Positions 7,853 to 37,450 of a stretch of 64,000 bases of DNA are shown here, one piece after another. The position numbers and the translations under genes are program-made. The stretch covers positions 3,730,272 to 3,794,271 of the forward strand of contig CBDHGE010000001.1 of the NCBI GenBank assembly GCA_965262955.1. The letters are read 5' to 3'. The first letter of the stretch is position 1; each line of letters opens with the position of its first letter. The notes beneath the pieces were generated by a model. It saw nothing but the letters and a program-made list of their open reading frames with translations, made no database searches and had not been told where the DNA came from. The DNA is from Candidatus Poribacteria bacterium (GTDB lineage: Bacteria > Poribacteria > WGA-4E > WGA-3G).

Positions 7853-8665
7853 ATGAAATTGACCGTGATTGGAAGTGCGATTTTACTTCTCATCTTCCCG
7901 GCATGGGCTGGAACATTTCTGGAGAATTTCGATAATGGAAACTTGAACGAATGGCAAGAATTTAACATGCGTAATGCGCCCGACGGGACTTGGAAAATCA
8001 TTAACGATGAATTACATGGGATAAGCCCAGATGCAGCAATACGTCTACTGACAATTGGTGATAAAACATGGCGCGATTACACTATTGAATTTGATGTCAA
8101 ACTTCTCAGGAAACGAGGTCGCGGAAATATTACTATTGCTGCTCGGATTACTGGAGATTGGGCAGCGTGGTGTATGATGGGTGATGATCCATTTGGCGGG
8201 AACATCTCAATGGTTGCGTATTCAGCAGGTAATTTTCGAGATCCTTCACCGTTTATTATTTTCGATTCCAAACCGCATCAACCTTTGAATATGAAGGAAT
8301 GGTCGAAACTGAAGTTAGAGGTTGAGGGAAATATGCTGAATTTTTGGATTAACGGAAATCACGTTCTTGGACCTGTACGACTTCCGAACCGTCAAACTTT
8401 CATAAACTTTGACGCTGCCAGAAAGCGGCATCTGGAACAGCATGCGGCTGAAAACAACGCGGAGAATCCCCCGAGATTTCGACCGATGGAATTAGGTAGG
8501 TTCCAAGACCTTCTAACAGGCGGAGTGGGGATAGGCCTCTCCAATCACACGGCGAGATTCGACAATATTGTAATTACGGGTGAGAGCATCCCGGGCACAC
8601 ATGGATTGTCGGTAGATCCCAAAGCGAAACTCGCGACGTTGTGGGGAAATCTGAAGCGTCTTTAA
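7853..8665 (+). CDS. Secreted concanavalin-A/DUF1080-like beta-sandwich protein with C-terminal KLATxWG tail
   Basis: Signal peptide (PAWA), W.DYTIEFDVK and ARFDNIVI motifs; ends SVDPKAKLATLWGNLKRL. Confidence 0.7.
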   Translation: MKLTVIGSAILLLIFPAWAGTFLENFDNGNLNEWQEFNMRNAPDGTWKIINDELHGISPDAAIRLLTIGDKTWRDYTIEFDVKLLRKRGRGNITIAARITGDWAAWCMMGDDPFGGNISMVAYSAGNFRDPSPFIIFDSKPHQPLNMKEWSKLKLEVEGNMLNFWINGNHVLGPVRLPNRQTFINFDAARKRHLEQHAAENNAENPPRFRPMELGRFQDLLTGGVGIGLSNHTARFDNIVITGESIPGTHGLSVDPKAKLATLWGNLKRL

Positions 8666-8748
8666 GATATTCCTTGAGGAAGTATAAATTTAGTTTCGGG
8701 AAAATTGTATAACGGATTCTAAACCCTCCTCTTCAAAGGAGAATTCCG

Positions 8749-9552
8749 ATGAAATTAATCGTGATTGGCAGTGCGATTTTTCTCCTCACGTTCCCGGTAT
8801 GGGCAGGGACATTGCTGATGGATTTTGACAGAGGAAACTTAGGTGGATGGCAGGAATATTTGATGGTCGGAGTATCCCCCGGTTCTTGGGAAATCATTAA
8901 CCGTCAACTGCATGCAGTCTCTAATGGTCAGTCGACACGTTTACTGACAGTTGGTGATGAAACATGGGGCGATTACACCGTTGAATTTGATGTCAAGCCG
9001 CTGAAAAAACGAGATCGTGGTAATATCGCGATTACGGCTCGGATCAAAGGAGACTGGGTAGTGTGGTGCGTGATCGGAGATCTCCCACCATTTCCCGACA
9101 AACTCTCCAGGGTTTTGTGTCTGGCAGGTAATTTTCGGAGTACTGATCCGCTTTACTCGTTCGGTTCTAAACTGCATCCACCATTGATTTTAAAGGAATG
9201 GTCAAAACTGAAGTTGGAAGTTGAGGAAAATACGCTAAATTTTTGGATTAACGGAGAGCATGCGCTGGGTCCCGTGAAACTCCCAAGTCTCCGAACTTTT
9301 CAACAACTTGACGCTCACAGAAAACAGCATCTGGTGGAGGGACACGGGTTGGATCCGAAAAACTTTGAAGCAATGAACTTAGACGGGTTCCAGGACTTCC
9401 TGACAGGTGGTGCGGGTTTGGGTCTCTCCAATCAGACAGCAAGATTCGACAACTTTGTAATTACGGGTGAGAGTATACCGAACAGACATGGATTGTCGGT
9501 GACACCCAAAGCAAAACTCGCGACGTTGTGGGGAAATCTGAAGCGTCTTTAG
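8749..9552 (+). CDS. Tandem paralog of 7853..8665, secreted beta-sandwich protein with KLATxWG tail
   Basis: Colinear similarity to the upstream ORF; ends SVTPKAKLATLWGNLKRL. Confidence 0.7.
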   Translation: MKLIVIGSAIFLLTFPVWAGTLLMDFDRGNLGGWQEYLMVGVSPGSWEIINRQLHAVSNGQSTRLLTVGDETWGDYTVEFDVKPLKKRDRGNIAITARIKGDWVVWCVIGDLPPFPDKLSRVLCLAGNFRSTDPLYSFGSKLHPPLILKEWSKLKLEVEENTLNFWINGEHALGPVKLPSLRTFQQLDAHRKQHLVEGHGLDPKNFEAMNLDGFQDFLTGGAGLGLSNQTARFDNFVITGESIPNRHGLSVTPKAKLATLWGNLKRL

Positions 9553-9592
9553 GATATTCCTTTAGTCCGAAAGGATAACGGAGAGGTGGATC

Positions 9593-10819
9593 GTGCCGAT
9601 ATTCCGATATGAAGCCCTCACCCACAGCGGCGGAACCGTTAATAACACATTGGAAGCCGAGTCCAAAGCCGAACTTATCTCCCGATTGCGGCAGATGGGC
9701 TATTGGCCCACGAATATTGTTGAGGAAACAGAGGACGCTGTCCCCACAGACATACGACGGTGGCTCCAGATCGGGCGTCGCGGAGTCAAACCAGCGGACG
9801 TTGAGTTCTTCACCTATCAGTTGGCAACACTGGTAAACGCACACGTTCCGTTGCCACGCGCATTAGATGTTACCCTTGGACAAATCGAGAGTCCCGCGCT
9901 TCACCGAATTGTATCACAAGTCAAATACGATGTCGAACACGGGGCAACCTTCCATGACGCACTCACCCAACACCCAAAGGCATTTTCAAATCTCTATGTC
10001 AATATGGTAAGAGCCGGAGAGAGCGGCGGCGTACTCGGCTTGGTTTTAGAACGCCTCGCAGAATTCGCTGAACGCCAGCGACTCCTGAAAAACGACGTCG
10101 TCTCAGCACTCTTCTATCCCATTATTTTATTGACGCTGAGTATCACCGCCGTCACAGTCCTAATGATTCTCGTTATACCAAAATTCACCGCAATGTTCAA
10201 TGATTTGGGAGTCGCGTTACCACTTCCAACCCAGATCCTGATTAACATAACGGCTGCCTTTCAGACCTATTGGTGGGTGGGACTTCTCATCGTTGTTATA
10301 GGTGGGGCAGGGATAAGACAATATCTCCAGCATGAAACCGGTCAAGTCTGGTTTGATAGATTAAAACTCAAATTGCCACTTATTGGTCCCATATTTAGCA
10401 CTTTTGCTATTGTCCGTTTCACGCGGACGATGGCAACCCTTTTAGAAAACGGCGTACGCATGCTACCCGCACTCCAAGTCGTCAAAGACACTATCGGAAA
10501 CAAGGTATACAGCAACGTCATCGCAGCAGCAGAAGTAGAGGTAGAACAGGGCTCCACTCTCTCTCGTGAACTCGGTAGAAGCAAGGACTTTCCTGAATTT
10601 GTTACGCACATGGTCGCTGTCGGTGAGGAGTCCGGTGAACCTGTACACATGCTGGGCAAACTCTCTGAATACTATGATTTAGAAATAAAGAAGAGTCTTG
10701 AACGTTTAACCAGTTCCATCGGTCCCCTTGTTATCTTACTGATGGGAATTATTATCGGATTCATCGCTGTCGCGATGATCCTCCCAATCTTTGAGGCAAA
10801 CCAACTCTTAAGCAATTAA
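9593..10819 (+). CDS. gspF: T2SS inner-membrane platform protein GspF/PilC
   Basis: MPIFRYEA start; duplicated MVRAGESGG / MVAVGEESG motifs; three TM segments. Confidence 0.95.
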   Translation: MPIFRYEALTHSGGTVNNTLEAESKAELISRLRQMGYWPTNIVEETEDAVPTDIRRWLQIGRRGVKPADVEFFTYQLATLVNAHVPLPRALDVTLGQIESPALHRIVSQVKYDVEHGATFHDALTQHPKAFSNLYVNMVRAGESGGVLGLVLERLAEFAERQRLLKNDVVSALFYPIILLTLSITAVTVLMILVIPKFTAMFNDLGVALPLPTQILINITAAFQTYWWVGLLIVVIGGAGIRQYLQHETGQVWFDRLKLKLPLIGPIFSTFAIVRFTRTMATLLENGVRMLPALQVVKDTIGNKVYSNVIAAAEVEVEQGSTLSRELGRSKDFPEFVTHMVAVGEESGEPVHMLGKLSEYYDLEIKKSLERLTSSIGPLVILLMGIIIGFIAVAMILPIFEANQLLSN

Positions 10820-10861
10820 TGTGCTTATAGGCACTGGCGTGCCACTTTATAGGAGAAAATA

Positions 10862-11317
10862 ATGTTCATGCAAATTAAATCAGACCAATCTGGATTAACC
10901 CTAATCGAGTTGACGATTGTCATCGTCATCTTAGGTATTCTGGCAGCCTTCATCGCGCCGCGGGTCATAAACGCACCACAGCAGGCGAAGGTCGCAAAGG
11001 CACAAACAGAAATTAACAGTATTAAAACCGCATTGGAACAGTATGCAATAGCCACGGGAGAATATCCCACAACTGAACAAGGACTCAGTGCCTTGTGGCG
11101 TGCCCCAAGTCCCGCACCACCAAACTGGAACGGCCCCTACGTGGATAGCCCGAGTTTCATGGATCCATGGAGTAACGCATACGTCTACCGCCAACCCAGC
11201 ACCCATTACGGCTATGACTACGATCTCTATTCGATGGGAAAAGATGGGAAGGTAGGTGGCGAGGATTTGGACGCTGACATTACCAATTGGGTTGACGAGA
11301 CAACCGGAGTCTATTAA
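10862..11317 (+). CDS. gspG: T2SS major pseudopilin GspG
   Basis: G|LTLIEL prepilin site; YPTTEQGL.AL, WNGPY, DPW.NAY and ADITNW motifs. Confidence 0.95.
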   Translation: MFMQIKSDQSGLTLIELTIVIVILGILAAFIAPRVINAPQQAKVAKAQTEINSIKTALEQYAIATGEYPTTEQGLSALWRAPSPAPPNWNGPYVDSPSFMDPWSNAYVYRQPSTHYGYDYDLYSMGKDGKVGGEDLDADITNWVDETTGVY

Positions 11318-11321
11318 AACA

Positions 11322-12023
11322 GTGCTGCAAACTACAAATAAGCGCGATCCTCAGGTCGCCGCTGCATGTTCTCAATCTCAGAGCGGTTTTACGGTCACTG
11401 AATTACTGCTCGTTTTGGTGCTCATCGGCGTACTTTCGGCAATTTCGATGCCCACGCTGAAGGGGTTTGCAGCATCGCGACGCTTAAAAGCATCCGCTCA
11501 GACGCTTCGCAGCCTACTCACATTCGCGCGAGACATGGCGATAACGGATCGGACAGCATATCTCGTGGTCTTTGATCTCGACAGTGAACAGTACTGGCTT
11601 GCTTCCAGCGAAACATTTAATCCGAGTAATCCGCTCAGCTCAGCACTGACTGCGCGAAATTCTACAGCATTAGCCGCCATTCAGAACAATATGAACGGAA
11701 CCAATCTTACAACTGGCAATCCTGTTCAACAGAATCTTGTGTCCCGTACCAGTGGTATCCTTGGTGTGCCACACGCAATGGAACAGAACGTAACCTTAGA
11801 CTTAATAATAACCAATCACAACGGTAGAACTGCGCAAATTGATTCAGGTGTAACATACATCCCTTTTTCGCCCAACGCGACGTCCGAGGAGGCACTTGTG
11901 TACCTTCGGAACACCCGAAATCAGATAATGTCTGTCACTGTTGAGGCGGCAAGTGGACGCGTCCGCGTCCGACAACTTCTCCCTGCAGAAATTGAAATGT
12001 TGGGGTTTGAAACGGAAGGTTAA
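11322..12023 (+). CDS. gspH: Minor pseudopilin GspH/FimT-like
   Basis: G|FTVTELLLV prepilin motif, ARDMA, SGRVRV. In-frame GTG at 11322 chosen to avoid overlap with gspG (ORF track starts at 11256). Confidence 0.8.
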   Translation: MLQTTNKRDPQVAAACSQSQSGFTVTELLLVLVLIGVLSAISMPTLKGFAASRRLKASAQTLRSLLTFARDMAITDRTAYLVVFDLDSEQYWLASSETFNPSNPLSSALTARNSTALAAIQNNMNGTNLTTGNPVQQNLVSRTSGILGVPHAMEQNVTLDLIITNHNGRTAQIDSGVTYIPFSPNATSEEALVYLRNTRNQIMSVTVEAASGRVRVRQLLPAEIEMLGFETEG

Positions 12024-12119
12024 TGGTAAATTATAAAAATTAAGTAAACTTCACAATAACTTGTGGGAGGGGTTTTGCGGCGTACTCGCCCAAATGCAAC
12101 GTGCATTCTAACCCCGATT
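12022..12119. repeat. Composite repeat: MITE-like left end, GTGG-type REP hairpin and 30-bp insert
   Basis: Left end resembles those at 52854 and 58191; GGGGTT...AACCCC arms are interrupted by the 30-mer at 12076..12105. Confidence 0.6.
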
Positions 12120-12136
12120 TTCCTTGGTAACATCGG

Positions 12137-12589
12137 ATGGAAGGTGCCAGAAACATGAACCCTTCAATACACACAAAACCAACAGAAAAAAACGGTTTTA
12201 CGCTCATTGAAATACTCATAACGCTGACGATTTTGGCGGCTGCGCTTCCCGCACTTTTGCAGGCATTCACCACCGCTACACGTAGTCAAGGGCTTTCAGA
12301 TAATAGTACAACCGCCCTCTACCTTCTCAAATTTCGGATGGCGGAGATTGAGATGGAAGGCTATCCAGATGTAGGTCAGGAGACAGGTGAATTTGGTGAA
12401 AATACGCGTTACCTTTGGAGTTCCGTTGTTGAAGAAATCGAATCTGAAGAGGTAGAAAATATCCGACGGGTCACCGTAACGGTCACGTGGCAATATAAAA
12501 GCAGAGAACGCTCAATGTCTATGACGACCTTTATAGCCGATAGACAAATGCCACAGGCACAACAGGGACAACAAAGTGGTAGTCGATAG
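12137..12589 (+). CDS. gspI: Minor pseudopilin GspI-like
   Basis: G|FTLIEIL prepilin motif, RRVTVTVTW; operon position. Confidence 0.8.
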   Translation: MEGARNMNPSIHTKPTEKNGFTLIEILITLTILAAALPALLQAFTTATRSQGLSDNSTTALYLLKFRMAEIEMEGYPDVGQETGEFGENTRYLWSSVVEEIESEEVENIRRVTVTVTWQYKSRERSMSMTTFIADRQMPQAQQGQQSGSR

Positions 12590-12607
12590 CGGTCTCCAAT
12601 CATTTCA

Positions 12608-13531
12608 ATGGAGTTCTCAAGGACTGTGAAAACGCAAGAAAAGCAAACCTTCGTTACCACTGATAGCGGCCTGACGCTCATCGAAATGCTCATGGCAGTC
12701 AGCATTCTCGTTATTATTGGCGGCTCAGCATATTTTGCCTTCAAGACAGCGGTAGATGCTTACCATCAGACGGAGGCAAGGATATTGGCGGCACAAAGAT
12801 GCCGGATCGCTATGGATCGGCTTGTGACGGATCTGCATAACATATACATCTCACTTGAAGCACCAGAACTCGCCCTGTACACACAAGACGGACCGAGTCA
12901 ACTCGGGGACAGGGATATGCTCAGTTTCGTTACACTGGTAAAAACAGACCCCGATCCTTTTCTGGGGCAGCTTGCGAGTTTTCAAGCGCAGAGCGCATCA
13001 CAAGTTCCAGCACCGCTTTTAAGCGACGTGCAGCGTGTAGCTTACTTCGTTGGACCTGAGCTGCCACCGGGCGAATCCGTATTGGGTTCGGGGAACTTTC
13101 AGGGTGGAATAACAAGCGACACAAGTACCGAAGAGACTGGCGAATACGCCCTCTTTCGCGTTGCTACGACAACCCTTGACCCTGAAGCCGTTATCGGCAC
13201 CTTTATGGAAACAGGTCAGGTTCCCCAAACAGACGAAGAAGGCAATCCCATTTATGTCGATATCGCGACCCTCGTCGCCGGACTTGCCAGTTTCGATTTG
13301 ACGTATTTTGACGGACAAGCGGAGACCTGGCGTACCTCATGGGACGATACCGAAAGCATTCCCAGTGCCGTTCAAATTCTCATCACTGTTCAAGGCGAGC
13401 CACAGCAGACAATAAATGTTGATACAACACAACTTGCGGTCCAGAATCAGCCTGTATCGCAACCGAATAGTATGACCCAATCAACGATGGTGTACCTGCC
13501 CGCAAGTGCTACCGCAGGTGGTGCACCATAG
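12608..13531 (+). CDS. gspJ: Minor pseudopilin GspJ-like
   Basis: G|LTLIEML motif, W..SWD...IP.AVQI C-terminal pattern; operon position. Confidence 0.8.
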   Translation: MEFSRTVKTQEKQTFVTTDSGLTLIEMLMAVSILVIIGGSAYFAFKTAVDAYHQTEARILAAQRCRIAMDRLVTDLHNIYISLEAPELALYTQDGPSQLGDRDMLSFVTLVKTDPDPFLGQLASFQAQSASQVPAPLLSDVQRVAYFVGPELPPGESVLGSGNFQGGITSDTSTEETGEYALFRVATTTLDPEAVIGTFMETGQVPQTDEEGNPIYVDIATLVAGLASFDLTYFDGQAETWRTSWDDTESIPSAVQILITVQGEPQQTINVDTTQLAVQNQPVSQPNSMTQSTMVYLPASATAGGAP

Positions 13532-13543
13532 GAAAAATTACAG

Positions 13544-15097
13544 ATGACGCAACTTGTAAGACGGATTTCCTACACCTTCCCTAAGGAGGAGCAGAGCGGG
13601 TTATCCCTTGTCTCAACCCTCTGGATACTGACGATTCTCTCAATTCTGGCGACGCAGCTGCTCTATTCAATCCACATAGAACAGCGCACACAACGGAATT
13701 TCTTGGACAGAGCGAAATTTCACTACGCCGCCAGAGCCGGGTTTGAATGGACGCTTGCGCGTATGCGTGGTGATCAAACGCCTTTCGATTCACTCGGCGA
13801 AAGTTGGGCTGAACCTATTGACGGACAGGTTGAAGACGGTATCCAAGTCGGTAATTTCTTAAATTATCGTGTGACAATCATCGACGAAGCGTCAAAGGTT
13901 AACCTGAACGCTGCAGATGTAGGACTTATCAGTAATTTGCTTGCACAGGTAGGGGTTTCACCAGATGAGGCACTAACCGAGGAACTTGCCACCAAAATTG
14001 TGGAAGGGCAACCATATCGCACTGTTCGAGACCTCGCCCGGGTCGAAGGAATGACATCCGAAGTCCTTTATGGCGTGCAACAGACAGGAGGGTTTGTACA
14101 AGCCAGTCCCACTGCACAAAACACAACCACTGAACTCTCAATAGCAAATTCTGGAAACGGCCAACAAGCTTCAGTGGATGCGCATCCAGGACTCGTCGAT
14201 TTAGCAACCATCTATTCAATCGACGCGAGCACCGACCCAAATGGGGAGCAGCTGGTCAATATCAACACCGCTGAAGCAGATGAACTCACTCAAATTAATG
14301 GGCAGCAAAACCAACCCATTTTTTCACAAGGTGAGGCGGAATCACTTATCCAGCAACGCGATTTTGATAGGTTTGCTGCACTCATAGACGTACAAGCGGT
14401 CTCCGACGAAATTTTTAATAATATCCAAGACCGACTGACGACAGAAGAAAATCGCGAAGATGAACAGGAAGAAGAAAACGACGATTCACAGGAACAAAAC
14501 TCACAACAGCAAGACGAAAATGGGCGAATCAATATTAATACTGCCGATGTTGAAACCTTTGAATCGCTTGAAGGTATTGACCAAGGAATAGCCGAACGGA
14601 TCGTCAATCACCGTGATACACAAGGACTTTTTCAGAACATTGATGCCATCAAAGATGTCAAAATGTTAACACAGCAAGAATTCATCGGCATTGTCGATAA
14701 AATAACATTAAAAGATGGAAATACCCGCAGCGGGCTCATTAACGTAAATACAGCATCAGCGGAGATCCTCGCACTACTACCCGGGATGGATCCAGAAAGG
14801 GCAAGGGCAATCGTTACACGCCGCGAAGAAGATCCACCCGATACTGCACAGATACAGAGTTTTACTGAAGAGGAAATAAAGGGAAATCCGTTTACCAACA
14901 TCTCACAAATTTCCGAGTTACCGGAAATTGACTTTGCAACGTTCCGTGAAGTTGTGGATTGGGTAACCTATCGTTCACATGGATACCGAATTGAAGCAAA
15001 TGGCGTTGACAGGGCAGATAATATTATCGCATCCTGTATCGGTATCATTGATCGCACAGGCAACGAGGTACGCGTTCAGTACTGGCAACAAGATTAG
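13544..15097 (+). CDS. gspK: Minor pseudopilin GspK-like with several helix-hairpin-helix modules
   Basis: G|LSLVSTLW (no E5), DSLGESWA, DEASKVNLN; repeated (I/V)N(I/V)NTA-HhH units. Confidence 0.85.
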   Translation: MTQLVRRISYTFPKEEQSGLSLVSTLWILTILSILATQLLYSIHIEQRTQRNFLDRAKFHYAARAGFEWTLARMRGDQTPFDSLGESWAEPIDGQVEDGIQVGNFLNYRVTIIDEASKVNLNAADVGLISNLLAQVGVSPDEALTEELATKIVEGQPYRTVRDLARVEGMTSEVLYGVQQTGGFVQASPTAQNTTTELSIANSGNGQQASVDAHPGLVDLATIYSIDASTDPNGEQLVNINTAEADELTQINGQQNQPIFSQGEAESLIQQRDFDRFAALIDVQAVSDEIFNNIQDRLTTEENREDEQEEENDDSQEQNSQQQDENGRININTADVETFESLEGIDQGIAERIVNHRDTQGLFQNIDAIKDVKMLTQQEFIGIVDKITLKDGNTRSGLINVNTASAEILALLPGMDPERARAIVTRREEDPPDTAQIQSFTEEEIKGNPFTNISQISELPEIDFATFREVVDWVTYRSHGYRIEANGVDRADNIIASCIGIIDRTGNEVRVQYWQQD

Positions 15098-15188
15098 GTA
15101 AATACTGTCTCTTATAGATGCTACAGTGTAAAGCAAAGACAAATTTTGCCGCGTATGGGCAAAATTTGGTGCTCGCAAAAGGATAAAA

Positions 15189-16940
15189 ATGGCAAAAAAT
15201 CGAGTTGTGGCGATAGATATCGGCACAAACACAGCGAAAATGGTTCAACTTGAACTGTCATCTACAGCCCTGCATCTCATCAATGCAAACGTCGTGACCT
15301 ATCCAAACGGAGCTGAACGGCAGCAAATCGTCGAATCAATAGCGCGTCTCTGGTCACCGTTAGGTAACCCGCCAACACAACGTGACCTTCGTTCGTTCTT
15401 TAACAGGGATAAGACGGAGATCGCTGTCGCCCTCCCACGATTCTTAGTGAGCACAAAACGCTTAGGGAACCTACCCGCTGCAACAGACGATCAACTCTCC
15501 AATATTGTTGCAATCTCGGCAGAAACAGAACTACCCTTTCGGATTGATGAAGCCATCTTTACCTATCACGATGTACAACGGACACCAGAAGCAGTGTCCG
15601 TAGAGTTAATATCCACGCGACGCTCCACAGTTACAGATTATCTTACTCTTCTTGAACAAATTGGGGTGTCCGCTTCCGCTGTTGTCCCCTCAACGATAGC
15701 AATTGCTGAAGTGGCTGCAAAGAGCGGATGTTCACAGCCTACATTCATCGTTGACATCGGTGCCGAACAAACGGACTTCTGTTTCATGCAAGACGGTGTG
15801 CTGCGGTTTTCACGGAGTTTTCGACTCGGTGAAAACCATCTATCTGAACATGTGAGTCGCGCATTGAATGTTGATATTGAAACAGCAGCGGAAGAAAAAC
15901 AGCATATTTCAGCAAGCGAAGCTCCTATATCTACGTGGACGACCCAATTCGTTGGTGAACTTCGGCGTTCTATTGCTGCTGCCAGAACATACCACGGGAC
16001 TACTGATTCTGAAGATCTCACCCCATCGAACACGGAAACCGAACTCTGGTTGTGTGGCAGCGGTGCCCGCGTTCCAGAACTGACAACAGCATGTGAAACA
16101 GAGCTCAACATTGCAACACGGCTATGGAATCCGTCCCATGCTCTTGAACAACACGTAGGTATTGACACACGTTTCTCAAGTGCGGAAGCGAAATCCGCGT
16201 TTGACGAATGGGGGGATACGCTCGCTGTGCCGTTAGGTGTTGCTCTAAATACGTTGAATCCTAAAACAAAGGTGTCTCTGCTCCCAAAAGAAGCCGTCGA
16301 GACGTTAACCCAAGCAACACGGCAACGCCAGATTTTCGCTTCCGCTGGATTGGGTGTGTTAGTAATCGGCGCACTTCTTTTTGGCGGCTACACGCTTCAA
16401 CGCGCACAACAATACAGGTCTCAGACTCTCGACACGCAGCTCGCGCATTATGCGCAGCCGCTGGCATTAGCCAAAGCACAGCTCGGACGGGAATTAGCAA
16501 TAACTGAGATGCTAACGCATCACATCTCGCCACTCGATATTCTACACTCGCTCAGCGCGATGTTTAGCGATAGAACACAAGTCGCTTGGACAAATTTCAA
16601 TATTACAAATCTCAATACACCTGAGACCGCTCGCATTATGTTCAATTTAGAAAGTTCCTCTCATAACGCAATCAACTCTCTCTTGAGTGCACTTAATCGG
16701 TCTAATGTCTTTACCAACGTGCAAGCTGGTGAAGTTACAACAACCACGCAGAATAAAAAACAGATTTTCCAAGTCCAGGTACGATGTAACCTTACGTCAT
16801 CTGCCGTTCGGGCATTTGCAAAAAAACGTTACCCAATGCCCGAACCGACAATCGGTGAAACAGCGATAGGTGCTGAATTCAATATTAACCGCCCTACACC
16901 GGAGACCCTTGAGAACGAAAAGACTGTGGAAGACAACTAA
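15189..16940 (+). CDS. PilM/GspL-like actin-fold assembly protein fused to a TM and a PilN-like domain
   Basis: VAIDIG and IVDIGAEQT actin-ATPase-fold motifs, LCGSGARV, SLLP followed by a TM helix. Confidence 0.8.
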   Translation: MAKNRVVAIDIGTNTAKMVQLELSSTALHLINANVVTYPNGAERQQIVESIARLWSPLGNPPTQRDLRSFFNRDKTEIAVALPRFLVSTKRLGNLPAATDDQLSNIVAISAETELPFRIDEAIFTYHDVQRTPEAVSVELISTRRSTVTDYLTLLEQIGVSASAVVPSTIAIAEVAAKSGCSQPTFIVDIGAEQTDFCFMQDGVLRFSRSFRLGENHLSEHVSRALNVDIETAAEEKQHISASEAPISTWTTQFVGELRRSIAAARTYHGTTDSEDLTPSNTETELWLCGSGARVPELTTACETELNIATRLWNPSHALEQHVGIDTRFSSAEAKSAFDEWGDTLAVPLGVALNTLNPKTKVSLLPKEAVETLTQATRQRQIFASAGLGVLVIGALLFGGYTLQRAQQYRSQTLDTQLAHYAQPLALAKAQLGRELAITEMLTHHISPLDILHSLSAMFSDRTQVAWTNFNITNLNTPETARIMFNLESSSHNAINSLLSALNRSNVFTNVQAGEVTTTTQNKKQIFQVQVRCNLTSSAVRAFAKKRYPMPEPTIGETAIGAEFNINRPTPETLENEKTVEDN

Positions 16941-16994
16941 AACATATATTTTCGCTTCTTCTGATAAACGTTCACGTTTATAGAGTACTAACTT

Positions 16995-18281
16995 ATGGAA
17001 CTAAATCTCGAATTAACACCTCGAAGTAAAATTTTACTCGGCATTTTAGGCGTGGTCCTTCTGATTGTGATCATATTACAAGGTGCCCCAGCCTTCTATC
17101 GCTTATTTGCAAATCAAGATACAAAAGCGAAACAGGAAGAGTTACTAAAAACCGAAGATTTGGTCCATGCAGCAGCAATCTTAAAACCCGTAGAATTTGA
17201 AATTTACAAAGCGACAGGATTGGCACTTGCAGTAACGCCGCAAGTGAACACTCGCACACAAGGTGCCGCTACACTCTTTGATACAGAATCTCCAGAAACT
17301 GTCATTCGCACCCGCATCGATGCGCTCGTCAGACGGGCTGGTATTCAACAAAATTATCAGCTCCTGACGAAGCCGGGAACCGCTAAACAGACACAAAAAC
17401 TAACAATGCAAACACGTGAAAACCTTGTCCGCTATTTCTACTTCAAACAGATAGAAACGGAAGAAAAAGAACTCACGGAAATTGTTGAACGGGAGATTGA
17501 GGCGGACTCCTTCAACATGCTAATGGATGCTTGGCTCTCTGAAACCAAAACTAAAACCAGTGAAAACGCAGAGGAAGCGGATGGTGCGTTTTCCAAAACG
17601 GAACCTTCTAAAAATTATCCCGAAGTTGAGGATAGGGAGCGTCCGATCAATCCGATAGACGCTGTAGGACAGTGGAAATTTGCCCCGCTGCCAGAGGTGA
17701 TCCCTATCCAACTTCGTATTAAACTCGCCGCATTCATCAAAACGATGACCCTACAGCAGCTACGCGGTGCTACAGACTTCAGGCAAGGCTTCTTTGAAGC
17801 ACAGATTCACAAAGCCACAACCCCCGCTACTCCGGGGATCTTCGGCATCGGTGCCAAACCTGCTACCATCGAAATCCAATTGCGTAGGGACAGTGGGCTT
17901 TTGAATTTTCTTACACGAGCGTTAGACGAAATGTACGCCGAGAAGCCATTAGATATAGGTGAGATTCAATCTGCGCTCGTCAAATACATTGAAGGGATTC
18001 AAGAACAACAAGCGACACTTCTGGATCAGCTCGCGTTGGCACCGCCAACTTATCAGACGGAACTGTACACCGTCGAAATGAAATTCAAAACAAACCTTGA
18101 AAAACTCGTTAATTTAAACCATCTAATTGAGACAAGTGCTAAATGGCTGACAGTGCGCGATTTACGGATTTCTGCTGATAAACAAGGCGCATCACGTCCC
18201 CAGGCATCACGCGGACGGAATTCTGAGAATACTGATGCAAATTTGAATGTGGATATATTCCTCATCGCCCGAATATTTTAA
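16995..18281 (+). CDS. GspM/PilO-like bitopic membrane protein (large insert)
   Basis: N-terminal TM; C-terminal LE.LV.L...IE....WLTVRDLRI pattern; operon position. Confidence 0.55.
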   Translation: MELNLELTPRSKILLGILGVVLLIVIILQGAPAFYRLFANQDTKAKQEELLKTEDLVHAAAILKPVEFEIYKATGLALAVTPQVNTRTQGAATLFDTESPETVIRTRIDALVRRAGIQQNYQLLTKPGTAKQTQKLTMQTRENLVRYFYFKQIETEEKELTEIVEREIEADSFNMLMDAWLSETKTKTSENAEEADGAFSKTEPSKNYPEVEDRERPINPIDAVGQWKFAPLPEVIPIQLRIKLAAFIKTMTLQQLRGATDFRQGFFEAQIHKATTPATPGIFGIGAKPATIEIQLRRDSGLLNFLTRALDEMYAEKPLDIGEIQSALVKYIEGIQEQQATLLDQLALAPPTYQTELYTVEMKFKTNLEKLVNLNHLIETSAKWLTVRDLRISADKQGASRPQASRGRNSENTDANLNVDIFLIARIF

Positions 18282-18288
18282 TACCTAT

Positions 18289-18409
18289 TGGCTATCAGTA
18301 ATCGGCTATCGGTAACCCGTTTGGGGCGGTAAAACGTTCACTCCCACTACAGGACTTAGCTGACTGCTGAGAGTGGAGCACAGCGGAACGCCCTAACTGC
18401 TGATAGCCA
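18289..18409. repeat. ~120-bp MITE-like element built from degenerate heptamers
   Basis: Perfect 10-bp terminal inverted repeat TGGCTATCAG / CTGATAGCCA. Confidence 0.55.
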
Positions 18410-18418
18410 TAAAAAGGA

Positions 18419-21373
18419 TTGTATGTTATGCAAGGACGAAAACTCTTATTTATTTCATTACTCTGTTTGGGATTACTCATCACAGGACTTGCTGAGTTGC
18501 CCGCTCAGGAAGAACCAACCATGCGTGTTGCCCAAACAGACGAAGAAGGGCGTGCAATCCGCTTCGACTTTAACTTTACAAGTCAAGAACTCAAAGGTCT
18601 CTTTGAATGGCTCTCACGCGAAACAGATCTCACTATTATCGCCAGCGAAGAAGACATTAAAGATAAAAGATTCTCGCTCATCAATCTCAAAAACGTAACA
18701 ATTGAAGAAGTAATTGAAAAAATCAAAACCGTTCTGACGCAATACGACCTCACACTCATCCAAACCGATAGTACGCTCTTAATCACCACTTTCGAGCGCG
18801 CGATGGTAACAAAGGGAACTGTTAAAAATATCACACCAGATCCTGAACTCGTCGAGATGACCGACGAAATCCAAACCTATATCATCCAATTAAATACCGT
18901 CGTTGCCGCCGAACAGGTGGAGCGTCTCAAACCATTACTGAACAAACAAGCAAACATTTTCGCAGACACCGCAACAAACACACTCATCATAACCGATGTC
19001 GCCTCCAATATACGCCGAATTGTCGCAATTCTCCAAGTCGCAGATGAAGGCGAACGCTTTCCCTTAAAGATTCTCATTATCCCTCTCGCTTATGCTGAAG
19101 CCAGTTCTTTGGCACAAACGCTGAGCAATATCTTTCAGGAGACAGATGATGATGACAGACAGCAAAGAGGTACTGGTCCAGGTATGAGTGCAGACGAGGC
19201 AAAAACAGCAGCTGCCGAAATGAAAGCCGAAGGTGTTGGTTACGAAGTTCTCGATGGTACAATCAAAATTGTTGCTGAAACCAGTTCCAATTCACTCGTT
19301 CTCAAAGCCTCTGAGGCAAATCTGATTTTCCTCCAAGAGATCGTCAAGGAGCTTGATGTCGCACCCAGTTTACAAACCCAGATACGGACCTTTCGACTCA
19401 ACTATGCAGTCGCCCAGGATGTCGCAGAAACCCTTCAAGAAGTCCTTACCGGTGAGGATAGCCGAAACCGCGGCAGACTAGACGCTTGGGACCGTGCGAA
19501 ATTAAGAAACTGGAAACGTGAACAAGGACTCGAAGATTCACAAGGCATCGTTGGCACTGTCAACGTCTCCCACAATGATAGGCTCAATATCATCGTCGTT
19601 TCCTCAGATCCTCGTAATTTTTCCATCATCGAAAAGGTTATTAACGAACTTGATCAAGAGCAAACACAAGAAGAAATCAGACTCTACTTTCTTAAGTACG
19701 CTGATGCCGAAACCCTCGTCCAGAGCTTACAGGACCTGTTTGAAGGCGGCAGTGCCGGGCGCGACAGAGACCTTCCTTGGTGGGAGCGAGAGCGCAGAGC
19801 ACGACAACGACAACTCTCCGAAGGTAGCACCGGATTTGGTGTCCAAGGTGAAGTTCACATTGTTTCCGATATACGGCTCAACGCAATTCTCATTTCTACG
19901 AGTGCGCAGAACTTCGAGACGATAGATGGACTGATGAAAAAACTTGATGTTAACATGCCGGATCAGGAATGGGGAACCCGCATGTATAGACTCAAATACG
20001 CCGATGCAGAGAATGTTGCAGCTATTATCAATAACGTCTATCAAGGCAGCTCTGGAAACAGTGGAAATTTCTTCTTTTTCCTAATGGAACGCCAGCGCAA
20101 TCAGACGCAAGGTTCATTAGCAGGGAACGTTACTGCCGAACCTTATCCTACGCTCAATGCGGTTATCGTCTCGACCGCTACACAACGCAACTTTGACCTC
20201 ATCACAGAGTTTATCGACTCCATGGACACACCTACACCTGAAGGACAAAAAGAGATTACCGAGACAATTCGGCTTGAGTATGGCAATGCGGATCATCTCC
20301 AGGAAGTCCTTCAACAGGTCTGGGAAAGTGAGGAAGGTGACGGTGGCTTTAGTTTTAGCCGTTTCTTCGCTTCTGGTGGAAGGCAGGAGCAGCAAGACAT
20401 CAACTCGCTACGTGGAAAAGTCACCGTCTATGCCGATGCAGACACCAATTCTCTGATTGTCACAACGCGGCAACGATACATGTCCGCAGTTAGAGCACTC
20501 ATTCAGAAATTAGACTTCGTCCGAGGACAGGTCTGGGTAGACATTCAGATTCTGGAAGTTACTCTCGACGAAACCACCAAACTCGGTATCGAACTCACAG
20601 CGCAAGAAAACAAAATCTTCGGTGTCACCGCAGGTCCCGGCAACCCGCTTATAGGCAATTTTGACAGCCAACTCGGACTCGAACAAGAAATCTCCGGTTT
20701 TAACCTTGGCTTAGCGACCAAAGAATATATGTCTCTGCTTCACGCCCTTATGCGTGAGAACAAGGTTCAAACCCTTTCAACACCTTCACTTTTAACACGA
20801 GACTCATGGAATGCTACGTGGAGCAGTGGTCGTCGCATTCCCTACCTTCAGAGTGTTGACACAACCAGTATCTTGGGTGAGAGTGTTTCACAGCCGCTTT
20901 TCAACTACGACTTCATTGATCCGCCCGTCGGTATTAACATCTCTCTTACGCCTTACATTGCCAAGTCGCAAGTAGGAGAAGACGGCAAGCGAACCATTGG
21001 CTTGGACATCGAAAACATCAGTGCAAGTAACTTCATTGAGTTTACTGATTTCAATGCCCCCATCACCGATGACAATTCCATTAGCGTTTATATCGACGTT
21101 GAAGACGGTCAACAGATTGTTGTCGGCGGTATCATCCGCAAGAAACAAAAACAGGTAGAAAACAAACTCCCGATTTTAGGGGACATTCCGTTCATCGGTA
21201 GGCTCTTCAAAAACACAGAAACCGCTGTTGAAGATGCAGAGATTGTAATCATCATTACCCCGCACATCGTTGACATCAAAAATCCCGAAGACCTTGAGAA
21301 ACTCAAAGAAAAAGCACAAGATTGGCAGAATAACGGGACTTCTGGTAAAGAAACAGAACCTGTAGAGGAATAG
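18419..21373 (+). CDS. gspD: T2SS secretin GspD with an extended periplasmic N-domain stack
   Basis: Signal peptide, six N-domain repeats, secretin core (LPILGDIPFIGRLFK, IIITPHIV). Confidence 0.93.
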   Translation: MYVMQGRKLLFISLLCLGLLITGLAELPAQEEPTMRVAQTDEEGRAIRFDFNFTSQELKGLFEWLSRETDLTIIASEEDIKDKRFSLINLKNVTIEEVIEKIKTVLTQYDLTLIQTDSTLLITTFERAMVTKGTVKNITPDPELVEMTDEIQTYIIQLNTVVAAEQVERLKPLLNKQANIFADTATNTLIITDVASNIRRIVAILQVADEGERFPLKILIIPLAYAEASSLAQTLSNIFQETDDDDRQQRGTGPGMSADEAKTAAAEMKAEGVGYEVLDGTIKIVAETSSNSLVLKASEANLIFLQEIVKELDVAPSLQTQIRTFRLNYAVAQDVAETLQEVLTGEDSRNRGRLDAWDRAKLRNWKREQGLEDSQGIVGTVNVSHNDRLNIIVVSSDPRNFSIIEKVINELDQEQTQEEIRLYFLKYADAETLVQSLQDLFEGGSAGRDRDLPWWERERRARQRQLSEGSTGFGVQGEVHIVSDIRLNAILISTSAQNFETIDGLMKKLDVNMPDQEWGTRMYRLKYADAENVAAIINNVYQGSSGNSGNFFFFLMERQRNQTQGSLAGNVTAEPYPTLNAVIVSTATQRNFDLITEFIDSMDTPTPEGQKEITETIRLEYGNADHLQEVLQQVWESEEGDGGFSFSRFFASGGRQEQQDINSLRGKVTVYADADTNSLIVTTRQRYMSAVRALIQKLDFVRGQVWVDIQILEVTLDETTKLGIELTAQENKIFGVTAGPGNPLIGNFDSQLGLEQEISGFNLGLATKEYMSLLHALMRENKVQTLSTPSLLTRDSWNATWSSGRRIPYLQSVDTTSILGESVSQPLFNYDFIDPPVGINISLTPYIAKSQVGEDGKRTIGLDIENISASNFIEFTDFNAPITDDNSISVYIDVEDGQQIVVGGIIRKKQKQVENKLPILGDIPFIGRLFKNTETAVEDAEIVIIITPHIVDIKNPEDLEKLKEKAQDWQNNGTSGKETEPVEE

Positions 21374-31003: not shown

Positions 31004-31091
31004 TTGTTTTTCAACTAAACTGGGGTGGTACTAATGTGCCATCCCAACAATTAACACACTGATGGCAACCCAAAAGGAGGTATTGCACATC

Positions 31092-34204: not shown

Positions 34205-34891
34205 CTACCGAATATGGCTATAGAGCCTCGCAAGTCTCTCTGTAGAAATGCCAAGAAAATAGAGCAAAGTAATAAACCAGTTGTTCAGTGTTGTTCGGAC
34301 AATCCCCCTCGCTTCCCACCGCCGTGCGGAGATATGAATACACGGCGTAAGCAGTATCGTCTTACCCAGTCGTCGCAACCCTTTTGAAAATTCCATCTCT
34401 TCCAGAATCGGGACATCCGGGAAACCCCCAATTTTCTCAAAATCCATCCGAGCGAGGAAAATACCGCTATCGCCATAAAATACCTTTAGGTATCTACCCC
34501 GAATGTCCCCTGCTAACTCAATCAGACGATATAGGACATTCTTTCCATCAATCTTCTGACGGAACCCACCACCGACGTAACCTGAAGATATTGCGGTCGC
34601 TACCGCTGCAAATGCCCCCGATTCAAGCCAGATATCTGCGTGTAGGAAGATTAGGATGTCGCCAGTCGCTACTGCCGCGCCGGTATTTAACTGTTTTGCT
34701 CTGCCACGCTCCGACGGAACCACTTTCCCATATTTTTCTGCAATCTGAACTGAGGGGTCAGTACTTCCACCATCTACAACGATAAGTTCATGATGTTCCA
34801 ACTCAGGTTGAAGCTGAGAGAGCGTTTCCTCCAAAATCTTCGCCTCGTTCAGAATCGGAATGATAACTGAGATCCTTGGTAATGTCTCCAT
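34205..34891 (-). CDS. GT2 glycosyltransferase, TIGR04283-like
   Basis: SVIIP.LNE, VVDGGSTD, GRA.Q.N.GA, FLHAD, YGD and SARRW motifs. Confidence 0.88.
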   Translation of the reverse strand: METLPRISVIIPILNEAKILEETLSQLQPELEHHELIVVDGGSTDPSVQIAEKYGKVVPSERGRAKQLNTGAAVATGDILIFLHADIWLESGAFAAVATAISSGYVGGGFRQKIDGKNVLYRLIELAGDIRGRYLKVFYGDSGIFLARMDFEKIGGFPDVPILEEMEFSKGLRRLGKTILLTPCIHISARRWEARGIVRTTLNNWFITLLYFLGISTERLARLYSHIR

Positions 34892-34898
34892 AGGCGAA

Positions 34899-36668
34899 CT
34901 AAATCGGTGTTTGCAAAAACTGATTCAGAGCAAGTATCGGAAAAACAGATGCATAAATCGGATCCGCGTATCCACCGATGATTTCCCAATAAATGCCGAC
35001 ACACTGCTCATGCCATGAACCGTCGTCTCGCTGATGCTTGAGTAGAAAGGTTATCCCATCTTGAACTGCACGTTTTTCCGGGGCAGCAAGCAAAATCGCA
35101 TAGGTACTCCACGCTGTCTGCTCCACTGTGCTTTCAGTCGGATTCCCGAACATGTCCTCTCCCCAACCGCCATCGGTGTTTTGGCTACGTTCCAACCATT
35201 CAACACCACGTCCGACCTCAGGTGTGTCTTTCAACCCAACTTTGACAAGCGCAATAATAGCGCATGCCGTCCCATACGTGTCTTTCGCCAACCAGAGATC
35301 TCGCCAGTATCCGTCTCGATTGATTTGTTTGCGGAGCCAATCAATTCCACGATTCATTTCGCGCTGCATATCAGGTTTATCAGCCACATCACTCCGATCC
35401 AATTCAAGCAATGCTTCAATCGCATGTGCTGTGATGCTGACGCATCCGACATCTCCCTCTCCTGGTTGATATGTGCTCCAACCCCCATCGCGAGTTTGCT
35501 GTATCTTTAGCCACGCGGTCCCGCGGCGAATTGCATCATCTACAGCGTCTCGGTCAGTTGGTTCGCTCACACGAAGCGAGCGGATGAGTGCTAAAGTACC
35601 GAGTGCCGTATCGTCCGCATCGCTCGGCAGTGTACTGTCGTCCAGTCCTGAAAATGCCCAACCTCCATCACTGTTTTGGTGTTTCACGAGCCATTCCGCT
35701 GCACGTTTCACGCTATCAGTTAGCTCAGCATCCAACGGCACATCACCGTCGCTGATCGAATGTACCTCTGTTAAAGCCATGATACTCAAAGCGGTATCCC
35801 AAACGTTCAGGTTCAACGCCTCTCTGCATCCGCCATCAGGGTTCCTTGTGGTGCGGAGCCAATCAAGACCCCTCGCAATAAATGCAGCGGTGTCTTCATT
35901 TGGTTCCCATTTTTTCTGCAATTCGATGAGTGCCAAAACAGAGAGTGCTGTAATATAGTTCACCCGAAACCAACTTCCATCGCTAAGGACACGCGATTTC
36001 AACCAAGTAACGAGCGAATCAATCATTTCAGGACGCCTGGCTGTGTTCAGCTCAATCATAATGAAAACAGGGACGAGCGTATGCTGCTCAGCAATGAAGA
36101 GCGCATCGAACATCGGAGTATTAAACATCGCCACAGGGGGCAAGCGATGCCGCGGTGGTTTCAACCGACTCCCAAGCAGAGGAATCTTTGTCAATTGCCT
36201 CGCAAGTTTCATAAGTGGCAGTGCTTTTTCTGAAAATGTAAGTTCATTCCAATCGAACTGATTAAAAGCGGCGTAAGCCAACTTAACCAAAGCAAGGTGC
36301 GGAGGAAATTCTGGGATAGATGCCAATAGGTTTTGGAGCGACTCGTCTGATGAACATTGATGCGTCTGTTCCAGAATTAAGCGGACGAATCGGGTTGCTT
36401 CTGCGTTCGATATGTTTGCAATATCTAATCCCCATCCGCCATCTTTGTTCTGATTTGCAACAGACCATTCAATTAGATCAGGATCTGGCGTTTCATCTCG
36501 CGCCAGCTGAATCCAAGCGTAGGCACAAGTCGGGAACGTACTTGAAGAGAGCTGTCCTTCAAAAACACCATCCTCGCGCTGTTGCGTGAACAAAGCGGTA
36601 ATGCCGCGTGTTAAAGCAGATTTAACTTGTTCTGTCATACTTTTCACCAAACAACAAGGTTTTTCCAC
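34899..36668 (-). CDS. Squalene-hopene-cyclase-like class II terpene cyclase
   Basis: Several QW repeats (QNKDGGW, QNSDGGW, QRDDGSW), VWDTAL, catalytic DADDTA (DxDD). Confidence 0.85.
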   Translation of the reverse strand: MEKPCCLVKSMTEQVKSALTRGITALFTQQREDGVFEGQLSSSTFPTCAYAWIQLARDETPDPDLIEWSVANQNKDGGWGLDIANISNAEATRFVRLILEQTHQCSSDESLQNLLASIPEFPPHLALVKLAYAAFNQFDWNELTFSEKALPLMKLARQLTKIPLLGSRLKPPRHRLPPVAMFNTPMFDALFIAEQHTLVPVFIMIELNTARRPEMIDSLVTWLKSRVLSDGSWFRVNYITALSVLALIELQKKWEPNEDTAAFIARGLDWLRTTRNPDGGCREALNLNVWDTALSIMALTEVHSISDGDVPLDAELTDSVKRAAEWLVKHQNSDGGWAFSGLDDSTLPSDADDTALGTLALIRSLRVSEPTDRDAVDDAIRRGTAWLKIQQTRDGGWSTYQPGEGDVGCVSITAHAIEALLELDRSDVADKPDMQREMNRGIDWLRKQINRDGYWRDLWLAKDTYGTACAIIALVKVGLKDTPEVGRGVEWLERSQNTDGGWGEDMFGNPTESTVEQTAWSTYAILLAAPEKRAVQDGITFLLKHQRDDGSWHEQCVGIYWEIIGGYADPIYASVFPILALNQFLQTPI

Positions 36669-37450
36669 TATTGTTTAAGAGATCCCCATAAAAGGGGCAA
36701 AGTCAATTCGGTGTATTCGACCGCCTGTGGTGCCTCCAAGTTTGGACTCAGCACATCGGCTTCCCTGGCGATCTCGCTAATTCGGACTTCGTCTATTAAT
36801 CCCTTCCACTTAAACTGCCGTGTGTTCTTGCTGCCGATGATCACATCGTATCCGCCACTCACCAGTTTGCCGCCATGATTCGTTGAACTAACCTCTTTTC
36901 CATCAATATAGAGTTTTATCTGATTGGAGTCGTAGGTGCCGGCGATGTGTTGCCACTCCTCCAGTTCTAACGGTTTTGGAGCACCAGCGAAGGCAACACC
37001 TTTGTCGGTATTAATGTGAAATTTGGTGATGCCATCCTGAACGCCTAAGTGATAGGCACCCGGAGGACCATCCCAGTTCGTAAAGATGAGTCGCCAACTA
37101 CTCAGGTCTTCGGGATAAACCCAAGCTTCGATTGTAATCTCAGTTTTCGGTATAAGGACTTTTGCTTCACCGAGAGAGATTACCGTATTGCCATCAAAAA
37201 CGAACGATTTACCTGGTTTGTTCTCTTTGTTCCAATCTTGGTTCGCGTCCCAGACGGCTTTCCCTTCCACATCACCTTTGACACCATTATCGGATGTGTC
37301 ATCTACACTGTCCCCATCAAAATGCCATAAGCCGAGTGTCGCCTCATCGGGAAGATATTCAAACCCATCAGCAGCAAAACTCAGTCCGACGATCGAAAAG
37401 GAGAGAAACCCACACGATAAAATTGTGAATCGCCATTTAATTAAATTCAT
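36668..37450 (-). CDS. Secreted LamG-like jellyroll protein with LWG tail
   Basis: TIEAWVYP, WQHIAGTYD, LYIDG, GLIDEVRIS; ends LTLPLLWGSLKQ. Confidence 0.88.
   Translation of the reverse strand: MNLIKWRFTILSCGFLSFSIVGLSFAADGFEYLPDEATLGLWHFDGDSVDDTSDNGVKGDVEGKAVWDANQDWNKENKPGKSFVFDGNTVISLGEAKVLIPKTEITIEAWVYPEDLSSWRLIFTNWDGPPGAYHLGVQDGITKFHINTDKGVAFAGAPKPLELEEWQHIAGTYDSNQIKLYIDGKEVSSTNHGGKLVSGGYDVIIGSKNTRQFKWKGLIDEVRISEIAREADVLSPNLEAPQAVEYTELTLPLLWGSLKQ

Follow-up and report, generated by a model that had tools for sequence, protein, structure and literature searches.

A 64,000-nucleotide stretch of DNA from a Candidatus Poribacteria bacterium (GenBank assembly GCA_965262955.1, contig CBDHGE010000001.1, positions 3,730,272 to 3,794,271; hereafter the window) encodes eight exported proteins that end in variants of one short C-terminal peptide, here called the tail. 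The window is part of the 5.10-Mb, three-contig genome (G000) of a sponge-associated, uncultivated bacterium. An earlier note on the window, made from the sequence alone, had listed eight open reading frames (ORFs) and proposed that their shared tail is an uncharacterised export or surface-anchoring signal. All eight ORFs are present with the C-termini claimed. We scored the tails with a position-specific scoring matrix that spans positions -14 to +4 around a central Trp (position 0) and was trained on the genome's own copies. The genes are as follows (window coordinates, strand, product, tail and matrix score):

7853..8665, plus: gene 1, DUF1080/3-keto-disaccharide-hydrolase-like exported protein, 270 aa, between gspE and gspF; tail LSVDPKAKLATLWGNLKRL at 8606-8665 (plus), 42.9 bits
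8749..9552, plus: gene 2, tandem paralogue of gene 1 (64% identical), 267 aa; tail at 9493-9552, 40.9 bits
29092..29841, plus: gene 3, exported protein without Pfam match, 249 aa; tail LAVEPEGKLALTWASLKQ at 29785-29841 (plus), 42.0 bits
30131..31003, plus: gene 4, exported alpha/beta protein, weakly ThuA/GATase1-like, without Pfam match, 290 aa; tail at 30941-31003, 47.4 bits
31092..31958, plus: gene 5, paralogue of gene 4, 288 aa from the Met at 31092; tail at 31896-31958, 49.1 bits
32114..33097, plus: gene 6, PD40 (TolB-like) beta-propeller protein, 327 aa; weaker tail variant SVEPTSSSLTTVWGEMKRK at 33038-33097 (plus), 12.8 bits
33138..34160, minus: gene 7, PD40 beta-propeller protein, ORF of 340 aa; tail at 33138-33206, 22.3 bits
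36668..37450, minus: gene 8, Laminin_G_3 (LamG) exported protein, 260 aa; degenerate tail AVEYTELTLPLLWGSLKQ at 36668-36724 (minus), -3.4 bits

The earlier note had seen the same motif on all eight proteins. This holds for six, which carry strong tails, whereas the tail of gene 6 is weaker and that of gene 8 is degenerate. The latter is inseparable from background by score and was recognised only via the LamG core of the protein, which is homologous to a 79-member cluster of tail-bearing LamG paralogues. The two PD40 tails (32114 and 33138) represent a subfamily variant. The signal peptide of gene 5 starts at 31092, as the earlier note had it, within an ORF that opens at 31062; that of gene 7 begins at an internal Met of its ORF. 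Pfam assigned 3keto-disac_hyd to two of the eight proteins (the second below the curated cut-off), PD40 to two and Laminin_G_3 to one, with nothing on genes 3-5, two of which make up one ThuA/GATase1-like family. By Pfam and structure, at least four families are thus represented (DUF1080, PD40, LamG and ThuA/GATase1-like), in agreement with the earlier count. On none of the eight proteins does a stretch matched by Pfam extend into the tail, and no NCBIfam model touches it at E<=1.

To count the tail in the whole genome, we applied the matrix to 46,029 Trp positions in six-frame ORFs of at least 60 aa. Scores of at least 20 bits were obtained at 172 positions, scores of 15-20 bits at none and scores of 0-15 bits at eight. 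The core of the tail comprises 17 residues, L-x-V-[ED]-[PA]-x-[GD]-K-L-[TA]-T-T-W-[GA]-x-[LI]-K, after which come 1-9 residues that are for the most part polar or basic. Among the 172 copies, Trp and Lys(+4) are present in all, Val(-10) in 158, Lys(-5) in 151, Leu(-4) in 147, Thr(-2) in 137 and Thr(-1) in 119, and the logo further shows Leu(-12) and the alternatives Glu/Asp, Pro/Ala, Gly/Asp, Thr/Ala, Gly/Ala and Leu/Ile at the remaining defined positions. The claim that Trp and Lys(+4) are invariant is therefore correct for this genome, but a few orthologues elsewhere have Arg at +4. A stop codon follows 1-9 residues after the tail in 170 of the 172 copies, most commonly after 3, and no copy ends exactly at Lys; the other two copies are internal. 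Half of the terminal tails (85 of 170) end in Arg or Lys, without a basic run, and the extreme C-terminal residues are variable. Overall the tail is Thr-rich and polar, its longest apolar run is ~4 residues, and it has no invariant Cys.

The ~170 tail proteins account for some 4% of the genome's genes, and the genes cluster, 51 of 168 adjoining another tail gene compared to ~13 expected. A strict degenerate DNA pattern for the motif matched the genome 54 times and its reversed control not at all. Where four-fold degenerate residues are identical, their third bases agree with an identity of 0.29, and the conserved residues use codons as the genome does. Because wobble positions are randomised and codon usage is ordinary, selection acts on the peptide and not on a DNA repeat. 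Residue-specific conservation combined with free codon choice is more in keeping with a tail that is recognised by a protein than with a lipid or DNA feature.

The earlier note had stated that no cytoplasmic protein in the window carries the tail, and had reasoned that frequent occurrence on proteins without signal peptides would speak against a sorting role. Using an in-house heuristic, we found a signal-peptide-like N-terminus in 162 of the 170 tail ORFs, compared to 489 of 1804 control ORFs of similar length, a control figure that is inflated by membrane proteins. When the eight negative ORFs were read by eye, three turned out to begin with an evident signal peptide if a later start is used, four were fragments of 62-138 aa, and one was a fusion of an extracytoplasmic function (ECF) sigma factor, a transmembrane (TM) segment and a Kelch domain in which the tail is extracytoplasmic. 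Thus, none of the 170 carriers is clearly cytoplasmic, which extends the statement to the whole genome. No 19-residue hydrophobic window occurs after residue 40 in 165 of 169 tail proteins, consistent with the reported absence of a TM helix from the tail. Lipobox-like and Tat-like signals are rare (10 of 170 and 1 of 170, respectively). Note that the sigma factor fusion (C1:562099-564078 of this genome, plus strand; 659 aa) consists of ECF sigma regions 2 and 4, a TM segment at residues 227-245, a six-blade Kelch domain and the tail; it looks like a fused sigma/anti-sigma-like sensor with a tagged outer domain.

After removal of signal peptide and tail, the remaining cores fell into 33 clusters unrelated by BLAST at E<=1e-3, the largest having 98 members at this threshold and 79 at E<=1e-6. 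Pfam families found on 39 representatives were Laminin_G_3, 3keto-disac_hyd, PD40, Kelch, LTD, CBM9_1, CBM_4_9, F5_F8_type_C, GH43_C2 and HmuY; many representatives had no Pfam family. Most carriers are single-domain proteins of 220-350 aa, and nine have 388-1182 aa. The tail is therefore modular and resides on extracytoplasmic proteins, as the earlier note had surmised from the window.

We considered whether the tail is merely a structural strand of each fold, which the earlier note had named as the outcome that would undo its proposal, or a DNA-level repeat. AlphaFold2 models were built from alignments of natural homologues. For gene 4, the model shows an alpha/beta core with its last helix at residues 250-266, followed by residues 267-290 with a predicted local distance difference test score (pLDDT) of 64 and then 47. 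Foldseek matched this core to ThuA/GATase1-like proteins only weakly (TM-score 0.40-0.45, best E 7e-4). For gene 1, a beta-sandwich with pLDDT >90 extends to about residue 244, and residues 250-270 have a pLDDT of 38-39. In both models the tail residues score between 38 and 64, and a low-confidence helix is drawn there. In 20 homologues of gene 4, the linker ahead of the V-E-P residues differs in length by up to 8 residues. The identical motif occurs on three fold classes, beta-sandwich, beta-propeller and alpha/beta. With low pLDDT on two folds, a variable linker and randomised wobble positions, a strand or DNA repeat is hardly credible as an explanation; as modelled, the tail is a flexible, disordered appendage.

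To assess the distribution of the tail, we searched other genomes with the strict pattern. Matches were present in 174 of 176 Poribacteria genomes and the reversed control gave none in all 176, with counts of 18-82 in the window's genus and numbers below ten in the most distant families. In the two genomes without a strict match, both from genus g25, a relaxed core matched 14 times (2 in the control) and 16 times (1 in the control). When 16 relaxed matches in one of the two were read, nine proved to be divergent C-terminal tails (V-D/N-P-x-x-K-x-A-T-A-W-G/A-x-L-K) and one a tail followed by a C-terminal domain (CTD) of the type IX secretion system (T9SS). Among 132 distinct strict matches in other poribacterial records, a stop codon lies at most 9 residues past Lys(+4) in 127; one lies at 12, one at 91 (a tail followed by a CTD) and three run off the locus. 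A signal-peptide-like N-terminus is present in 66 of 75 complete ORFs from these records. When the whole collection was scanned with the pattern, 74 of 80 loci among the matches listed were labelled Poribacteria, and the ESM Atlas yielded no clusters other than poribacterial ones of hypothetical proteins.

The single locus with the label 'Pseudomonadota' pointed to another GTDB phylum (the second phylum), in which 3 of 131 genomes searched (G176, G226 and G228) gave strict matches, with 4, 8 and 4 tail-like matches among the three and none in the control. In G226 and G228 the tails lie on the main contigs (~2.9 Mb). They occur on tandem pairs of paralogous exported proteins without a Pfam family, both members of each pair carrying the tail (loci on G228:C1, G226:C1 and G176:C186), and one of these proteins has the tail in 20 of 20 database homologues. 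The proteins are 39-68% identical between genomes and gave only one weak match to a poribacterial tail protein, and are thus not recent imports.

Genes 1 and 2 lie inside a cluster of type II secretion system (T2SS) type, all on the plus strand:

6046..21373: T2SS-type cluster, recognised by Pfam
6046-7815: gspE
9593-10819: gspF
10862-11317: gspG, then three pseudopilin-like ORFs
13544-15097: gspK
15189-16940: pilM-like gene
16995-18281: ORF without assigned function
18419-21373: secretin, 984 aa, the genome's only one

The secretin has six Secretin_N repeats, which give it an unusually long periplasmic part. Just downstream, in convergent orientation, lies the gene of a secreted 630-aa TPR protein (21385-23277). 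Further along the window, squalene-hopene-cyclase-like and family 2 glycosyltransferase genes (34205-36668, minus strand) lie between tail genes 7 and 8, with the gene of a TonB-dependent receptor (37769-39850) coming after tail gene 8.

If the tail were an export signal read by the T2SS, a link between tail genes and this system would be expected. In favour of this idea, the order gspE-tail gene(s)-gspF, with one or two tail genes, recurs in four other genomes of the genus. In addition, the window has eight tail genes where the mean is 2.1 per 64 kb (windows with at least seven make up 3.6% of the genome) and houses the sole secretin, and other short C-terminal tags depend on the T2SS. However, among the gspF loci of 20 genomes from other genera and families, 18 have gspE directly next to gspF, without an intervening tail gene, and one further locus contained only a 33%-identical gspF paralogue. 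A conserved T2SS-tail link was rejected on this basis. Moreover, genus g25 keeps the secretin though its tails are few and divergent. G226, G228 and G176 have secretins, but none matches the window secretin at E<=1e-15, while 47 tail-less relatives in the second phylum give ordinary matches to it (26-38% identity). Because the gspE-gspF insertion is confined to the window's genus and the second phylum has no close homologue of the secretin, the T2SS link is local and recent and not a property of the tag. Thus, the tie to 'this T2SS subtype' that the earlier note had implied is not borne out. In known systems (PMC11980579), the tag anchors the protein whereas the T2SS recognises the folded protein. 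We consider a T2SS export signal unlikely; the idea of a linear T2SS signal, though attractive, is not supported by the evidence here.

We next turn to the T9SS. Kamke et al. 2014 noted CTDs in poribacterial single-cell genomes and reported that structural Por genes were not found in them. The present genome has 63 matches to the T9SS CTD, which lie on other, mostly larger proteins than the eight of the window. A 2291-aa SprA-like ORF shows weak, collinear matches and is conserved in 19-20 of 20 genomes tested. There are also three PorU-like giants, each with strong central matches, and seven PorV-like matches. The relevant features are:

C1:2059342-2066214, minus: SprA-like giant ORF
C1:2025258-2031560, C1:378882-385292, C1:657567-662630 and C3:137085-138263: PorU-like giants (1688-2137 aa; two adjoin a PorV-like match) and further PorV-like barrels
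C1:2301551-2303431, minus: FG-GAP/UnbV_ASPIC protein with the tail followed by a T9SS CTD; the only tail of the genome that lies deep inside its protein, with 91 residues between it and the stop

Two more CTD-bearing ORFs of ~2100 aa have a PorV-like neighbour (C1:1964766-1971149 and C1:1038995-1045204).

The FG-GAP protein carries tail and CTD in series. In this group the Trp of the tail always lies exactly 11 residues ahead of the NYPNP motif. Of the 120 best FG-GAP homologues, 80 retain the tail; the closest 80 account for 78 of these, with identities of mostly 57-86%, and the other two are 36% identical. The divergent g25 also shows this arrangement. If the CTD were cut off at its border, Lys(+4) and ~4-6 further residues would remain, inside the natural range of 1-9. 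That the tail is kept ahead of an export domain argues against its being simply an outer-membrane export signal; a T2SS signal in particular would be redundant there, yet the tail is conserved. Note that both tail and CTD are missing from an FG-GAP paralogue encoded in the window (23658-25313). Within the LTD family, nine members carry the tail and ten homologues have a T9SS CTD instead, although the swap is not at an identical junction. In large LTD proteins (e.g. C1:3386148-3388934), a conserved segment, ...TDTTAKPNVxYYYRIEDxS...G...R(L/M)(K/R)G, precedes the tail; by eye it resembles the last strands of an immunoglobulin (Ig) domain of T9SS/FlgD type, with no Pfam call.

The abundance of T9SS components, the fixed spacing of tail and CTD and the alternation in the LTD family could be explained if the tail were a minimal T9SS-related signal, read for example by a PorV-like or PorU-like paralogue. 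Against this, G226 and G228 carry 4-8 conserved tails but gave no CTD and no SprA matches, and the tail has neither an Ig-like fold nor a match to a hidden Markov model. The SprA-like gene is flanked by tail genes in this genome, but this is not conserved elsewhere. An adjacency of tail genes to SprA was rejected after none of 19 loci on the N-terminal side and 1 of 20 on the C-terminal side showed it, the latter count being based on 1.5-kb flanks that are shorter than the distance of the downstream tail gene in this genome. Genus g25 offers no tail-less contrast, as it keeps the secretin and T9SS CTDs and has divergent tails. Since G226 and G228 carry tails without CTD or SprA matches, the tail is independent of the T9SS, as it is of this T2SS subtype. 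A T9SS mini-signal is therefore very unlikely.

Two further explanations place the function of the tail in the periplasm or in the tail itself. The tail could be a propeptide, a handle for a chaperone or a C-terminal-processing protease, or a retention signal, with the proteins staying periplasmic. The carriers include PD40/TolB-like and DUF1080 proteins, the L-x-V-E-P stretch could be a cleavage site, and a distance of 1-9 residues to the C-terminus suits enzymes that read C-termini. Such a role is also compatible with the tail-CTD arrangement if the tail acts before export. However, numerous carriers belong to module types normally located outside the cell (CBM9, CBM4_9, discoidin, LTD and HmuY), and the variable C-terminal residues are unlike those in PDZ-type recognition. 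On balance, we judge a purely periplasmic role rather unlikely.

Alternatively, the tail could be a foldon-like tag for self-association or an amphipathic anchor lying in the plane of the membrane or the lipopolysaccharide. According to the logo, Leu(-4), Trp(0) and Leu/Ile(+3) would fall on one helix face, flanked by Lys(-5) and Lys(+4); the low-confidence helix of the AlphaFold2 models and the tandem arrangement of tail genes are consistent with this view. However, the hydrophobic moment comes from only three residues, and the conservation of Val, Pro, Lys, Thr-Thr, Trp and Lys goes far beyond that of usual lipid-binding helices. Complex prediction for the DUF1080 protein, with residues 226-270 in three copies, reached a score of 0.02 (mark 0.42) and gave no answer either way. 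We regard self-association or amphipathic anchoring as highly unlikely.

We also searched for a partner, a processing enzyme and a prior description of the tail. The largest 'family' enriched among neighbours of tail genes was a single-linkage artefact that mixed TPR, FG-GAP, PD40 and LamG proteins. In a second family the enrichment is mild (p about 1e-3): of 121 members, 27 are encoded no more than two genes away from a tail gene, most of them in the same orientation. This family was rejected as a tail receptor because its proteins are cytoplasmic. By eye, this ~121-member family (e.g. C1:93108-93908 and C1:151509-152369) is PhyH-type dioxygenase-like. The occurrence of the tail in so few genomes of the second phylum provides unusual power for finding the partner by phylogenetic profiling.

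The tail was not matched by Pfam on the eight window proteins and the 39 representatives, or by NCBIfam on the eight. Full-text literature searches combining Poribacteria with secretion or C-terminal terms returned no description of it. Searches with motif strings gave no occurrence of the specific strings, 'TTWG' matching unrelated acronyms, and a search within a 2023 survey of new C-terminal sorting signals turned up no mention of Poribacteria. The tail can thus still be called uncharacterised, as in the earlier note. New here are the genome-wide census, the genus-specific nature of the T2SS adjacency, the conserved tail-CTD architecture, the use of either tail or CTD by LTD proteins, and the presence of the tail in a clade of a second phylum that lacks the T9SS.

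The reading we favour, tentatively and as somewhat less than an even chance, is that the tail serves as a recognition peptide through which exported proteins dock to a common partner of the cell envelope or surface, and not as the export signal. A shared protein partner is the best reading because the conservation is residue-specific and is maintained in ~170 contexts and two phyla, on a disordered peptide that is always extracytoplasmic. In this model, a lineage-specific modular peptide would be joined via a variable linker to proteins that are exported by Sec, bind ligands or glycans and mostly consist of a single domain. Outside the cytoplasm, one partner, either a receptor or a processing enzyme of the envelope or surface, would recognise ~170 different proteins by their common handle. 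The tail would localise or dock the proteins, as an anchoring tag does, and would not carry them across the outer membrane. Proteins with only the tail would presumably cross by the single T2SS, whereas the FG-GAP protein would cross by the T9SS, removal of its CTD then exposing a tail-type C-terminus. Such a role after or apart from outer-membrane translocation is favoured because the tail is kept before a functional-looking export domain whose removal would recreate a tail-type C-terminus. That there is a single partner, that its function is docking and that it acts at the envelope or surface are what we infer from these observations.

Several points weigh against this docking model. No partner of the tail was identified, and no conserved neighbour of tail genes was found at the T2SS loci, beside the SprA-like gene or in the tandem cassettes of the second phylum (5 loci). 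Signal peptides were called by a crude heuristic and not by SignalP, and localisation in this uncultivated organism is predicted from sequence. The argument from tail and CTD comes from one orthologue group and assumes CTD cleavage as in Bacteroidota. Finally, PD40/TolB-like and DUF1080 families are typically periplasmic in other bacteria, in line with a possible periplasmic role.

A bolder version of the docking model, possible but doubtful, is that the tail defines a new class of sorting signal: a TM-free linear tag read by a dedicated receptor or sortase-like machinery in all Poribacteria and the clade of the second phylum, resulting in a 'peptide dockerin' type of display. To our knowledge, the short C-terminal sorting tags characterised so far all have a TM helix and a membrane-embedded processing enzyme, and the only helix-free signal we know of on Sec-exported proteins is the folded T9SS domain. 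The tag would then add to the catalogue an entry that is 17 residues long, helix-free, present on ~4% of genes and conserved across a phylum. If docking occurs, ~170 lectin-like binding modules would be displayed or organised on the envelope, which could be central to the handling of sponge matrix glycans. The tail would also help to predict the surface and secreted proteome of abundant uncultivated sponge symbionts, in which ~170 'hypothetical' proteins per genome are now without localisation.

Comparison with known systems delimits the tail further. C-terminal signals of the type I secretion system (T1SS) are likewise C-terminal, uncleaved or loosely defined, and free of a TM segment. However, T1SS substrates lack N-terminal signal peptides, which nearly all tail proteins have. 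A hypothetical tag for substrates dedicated to the T2SS would need conserved genomic or phyletic coupling to this system, whereas the tail is not coupled, its insertion being genus-specific. Dockerins, like the tail, are uniform C-terminal modules on many different secreted modules, and both would assemble proteins on a common scaffold. In contrast to the tail, the dockerin is a folded Ca-binding domain of ~60 aa, and Dockerin_1 (PF00404) matched neither the eight proteins of the window nor the 39 representatives. Note that the window also encodes an exported Exo_endo_phos (nuclease/phosphatase) protein that ends in a type I dockerin (Dockerin_1; 45382-46659, minus strand).

The type A CTD of the T9SS (TIGR04183/PF18962, Por_Secre_tail) resembles the tail in being C-terminal, modular and present on Sec-exported proteins of many families. 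The two occur in the same poribacterial genomes, alternate on LTD passengers and stand in series in the FG-GAP group. They differ in that the CTD is a folded Ig-like domain of ~70-100 aa, whereas the tail has 17-25 aa, is disordered in the models and forms no sandwich. Por_Secre_tail has no match on the eight window proteins by Pfam or NCBIfam, and the tail is found in genomes without a CTD or SprA match.

There are also parallels with tripartite signals (LPXTG/sortase, PEP-CTERM/exosortase, GlyGly-CTERM/rhombosortase, MYXO-CTERM/myxosortase and PGF-CTERM/archaeosortase). Like the tail, these are short and lineage-specific, occur in dozens of copies on proteins with signal peptides, and have an upstream signature motif. 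They close with a cluster of basic residues; the tail has Lys(+4) and often a final Arg or Lys, but no basic run. Their defining TM helix is absent from the tail. Exosortase (PF09721) had no match in this 96%-complete genome, and neither did the PEP-CTERM model, for which the control was uninformative. According to PMC11980579, GlyGly-CTERM and MYXO-CTERM proteins reach the surface via the T2SS, which exports them regardless of the tag, while the tag serves to anchor them. By analogy, MYXO-CTERM and GlyGly-CTERM would be the nearest functional counterparts of the tail.

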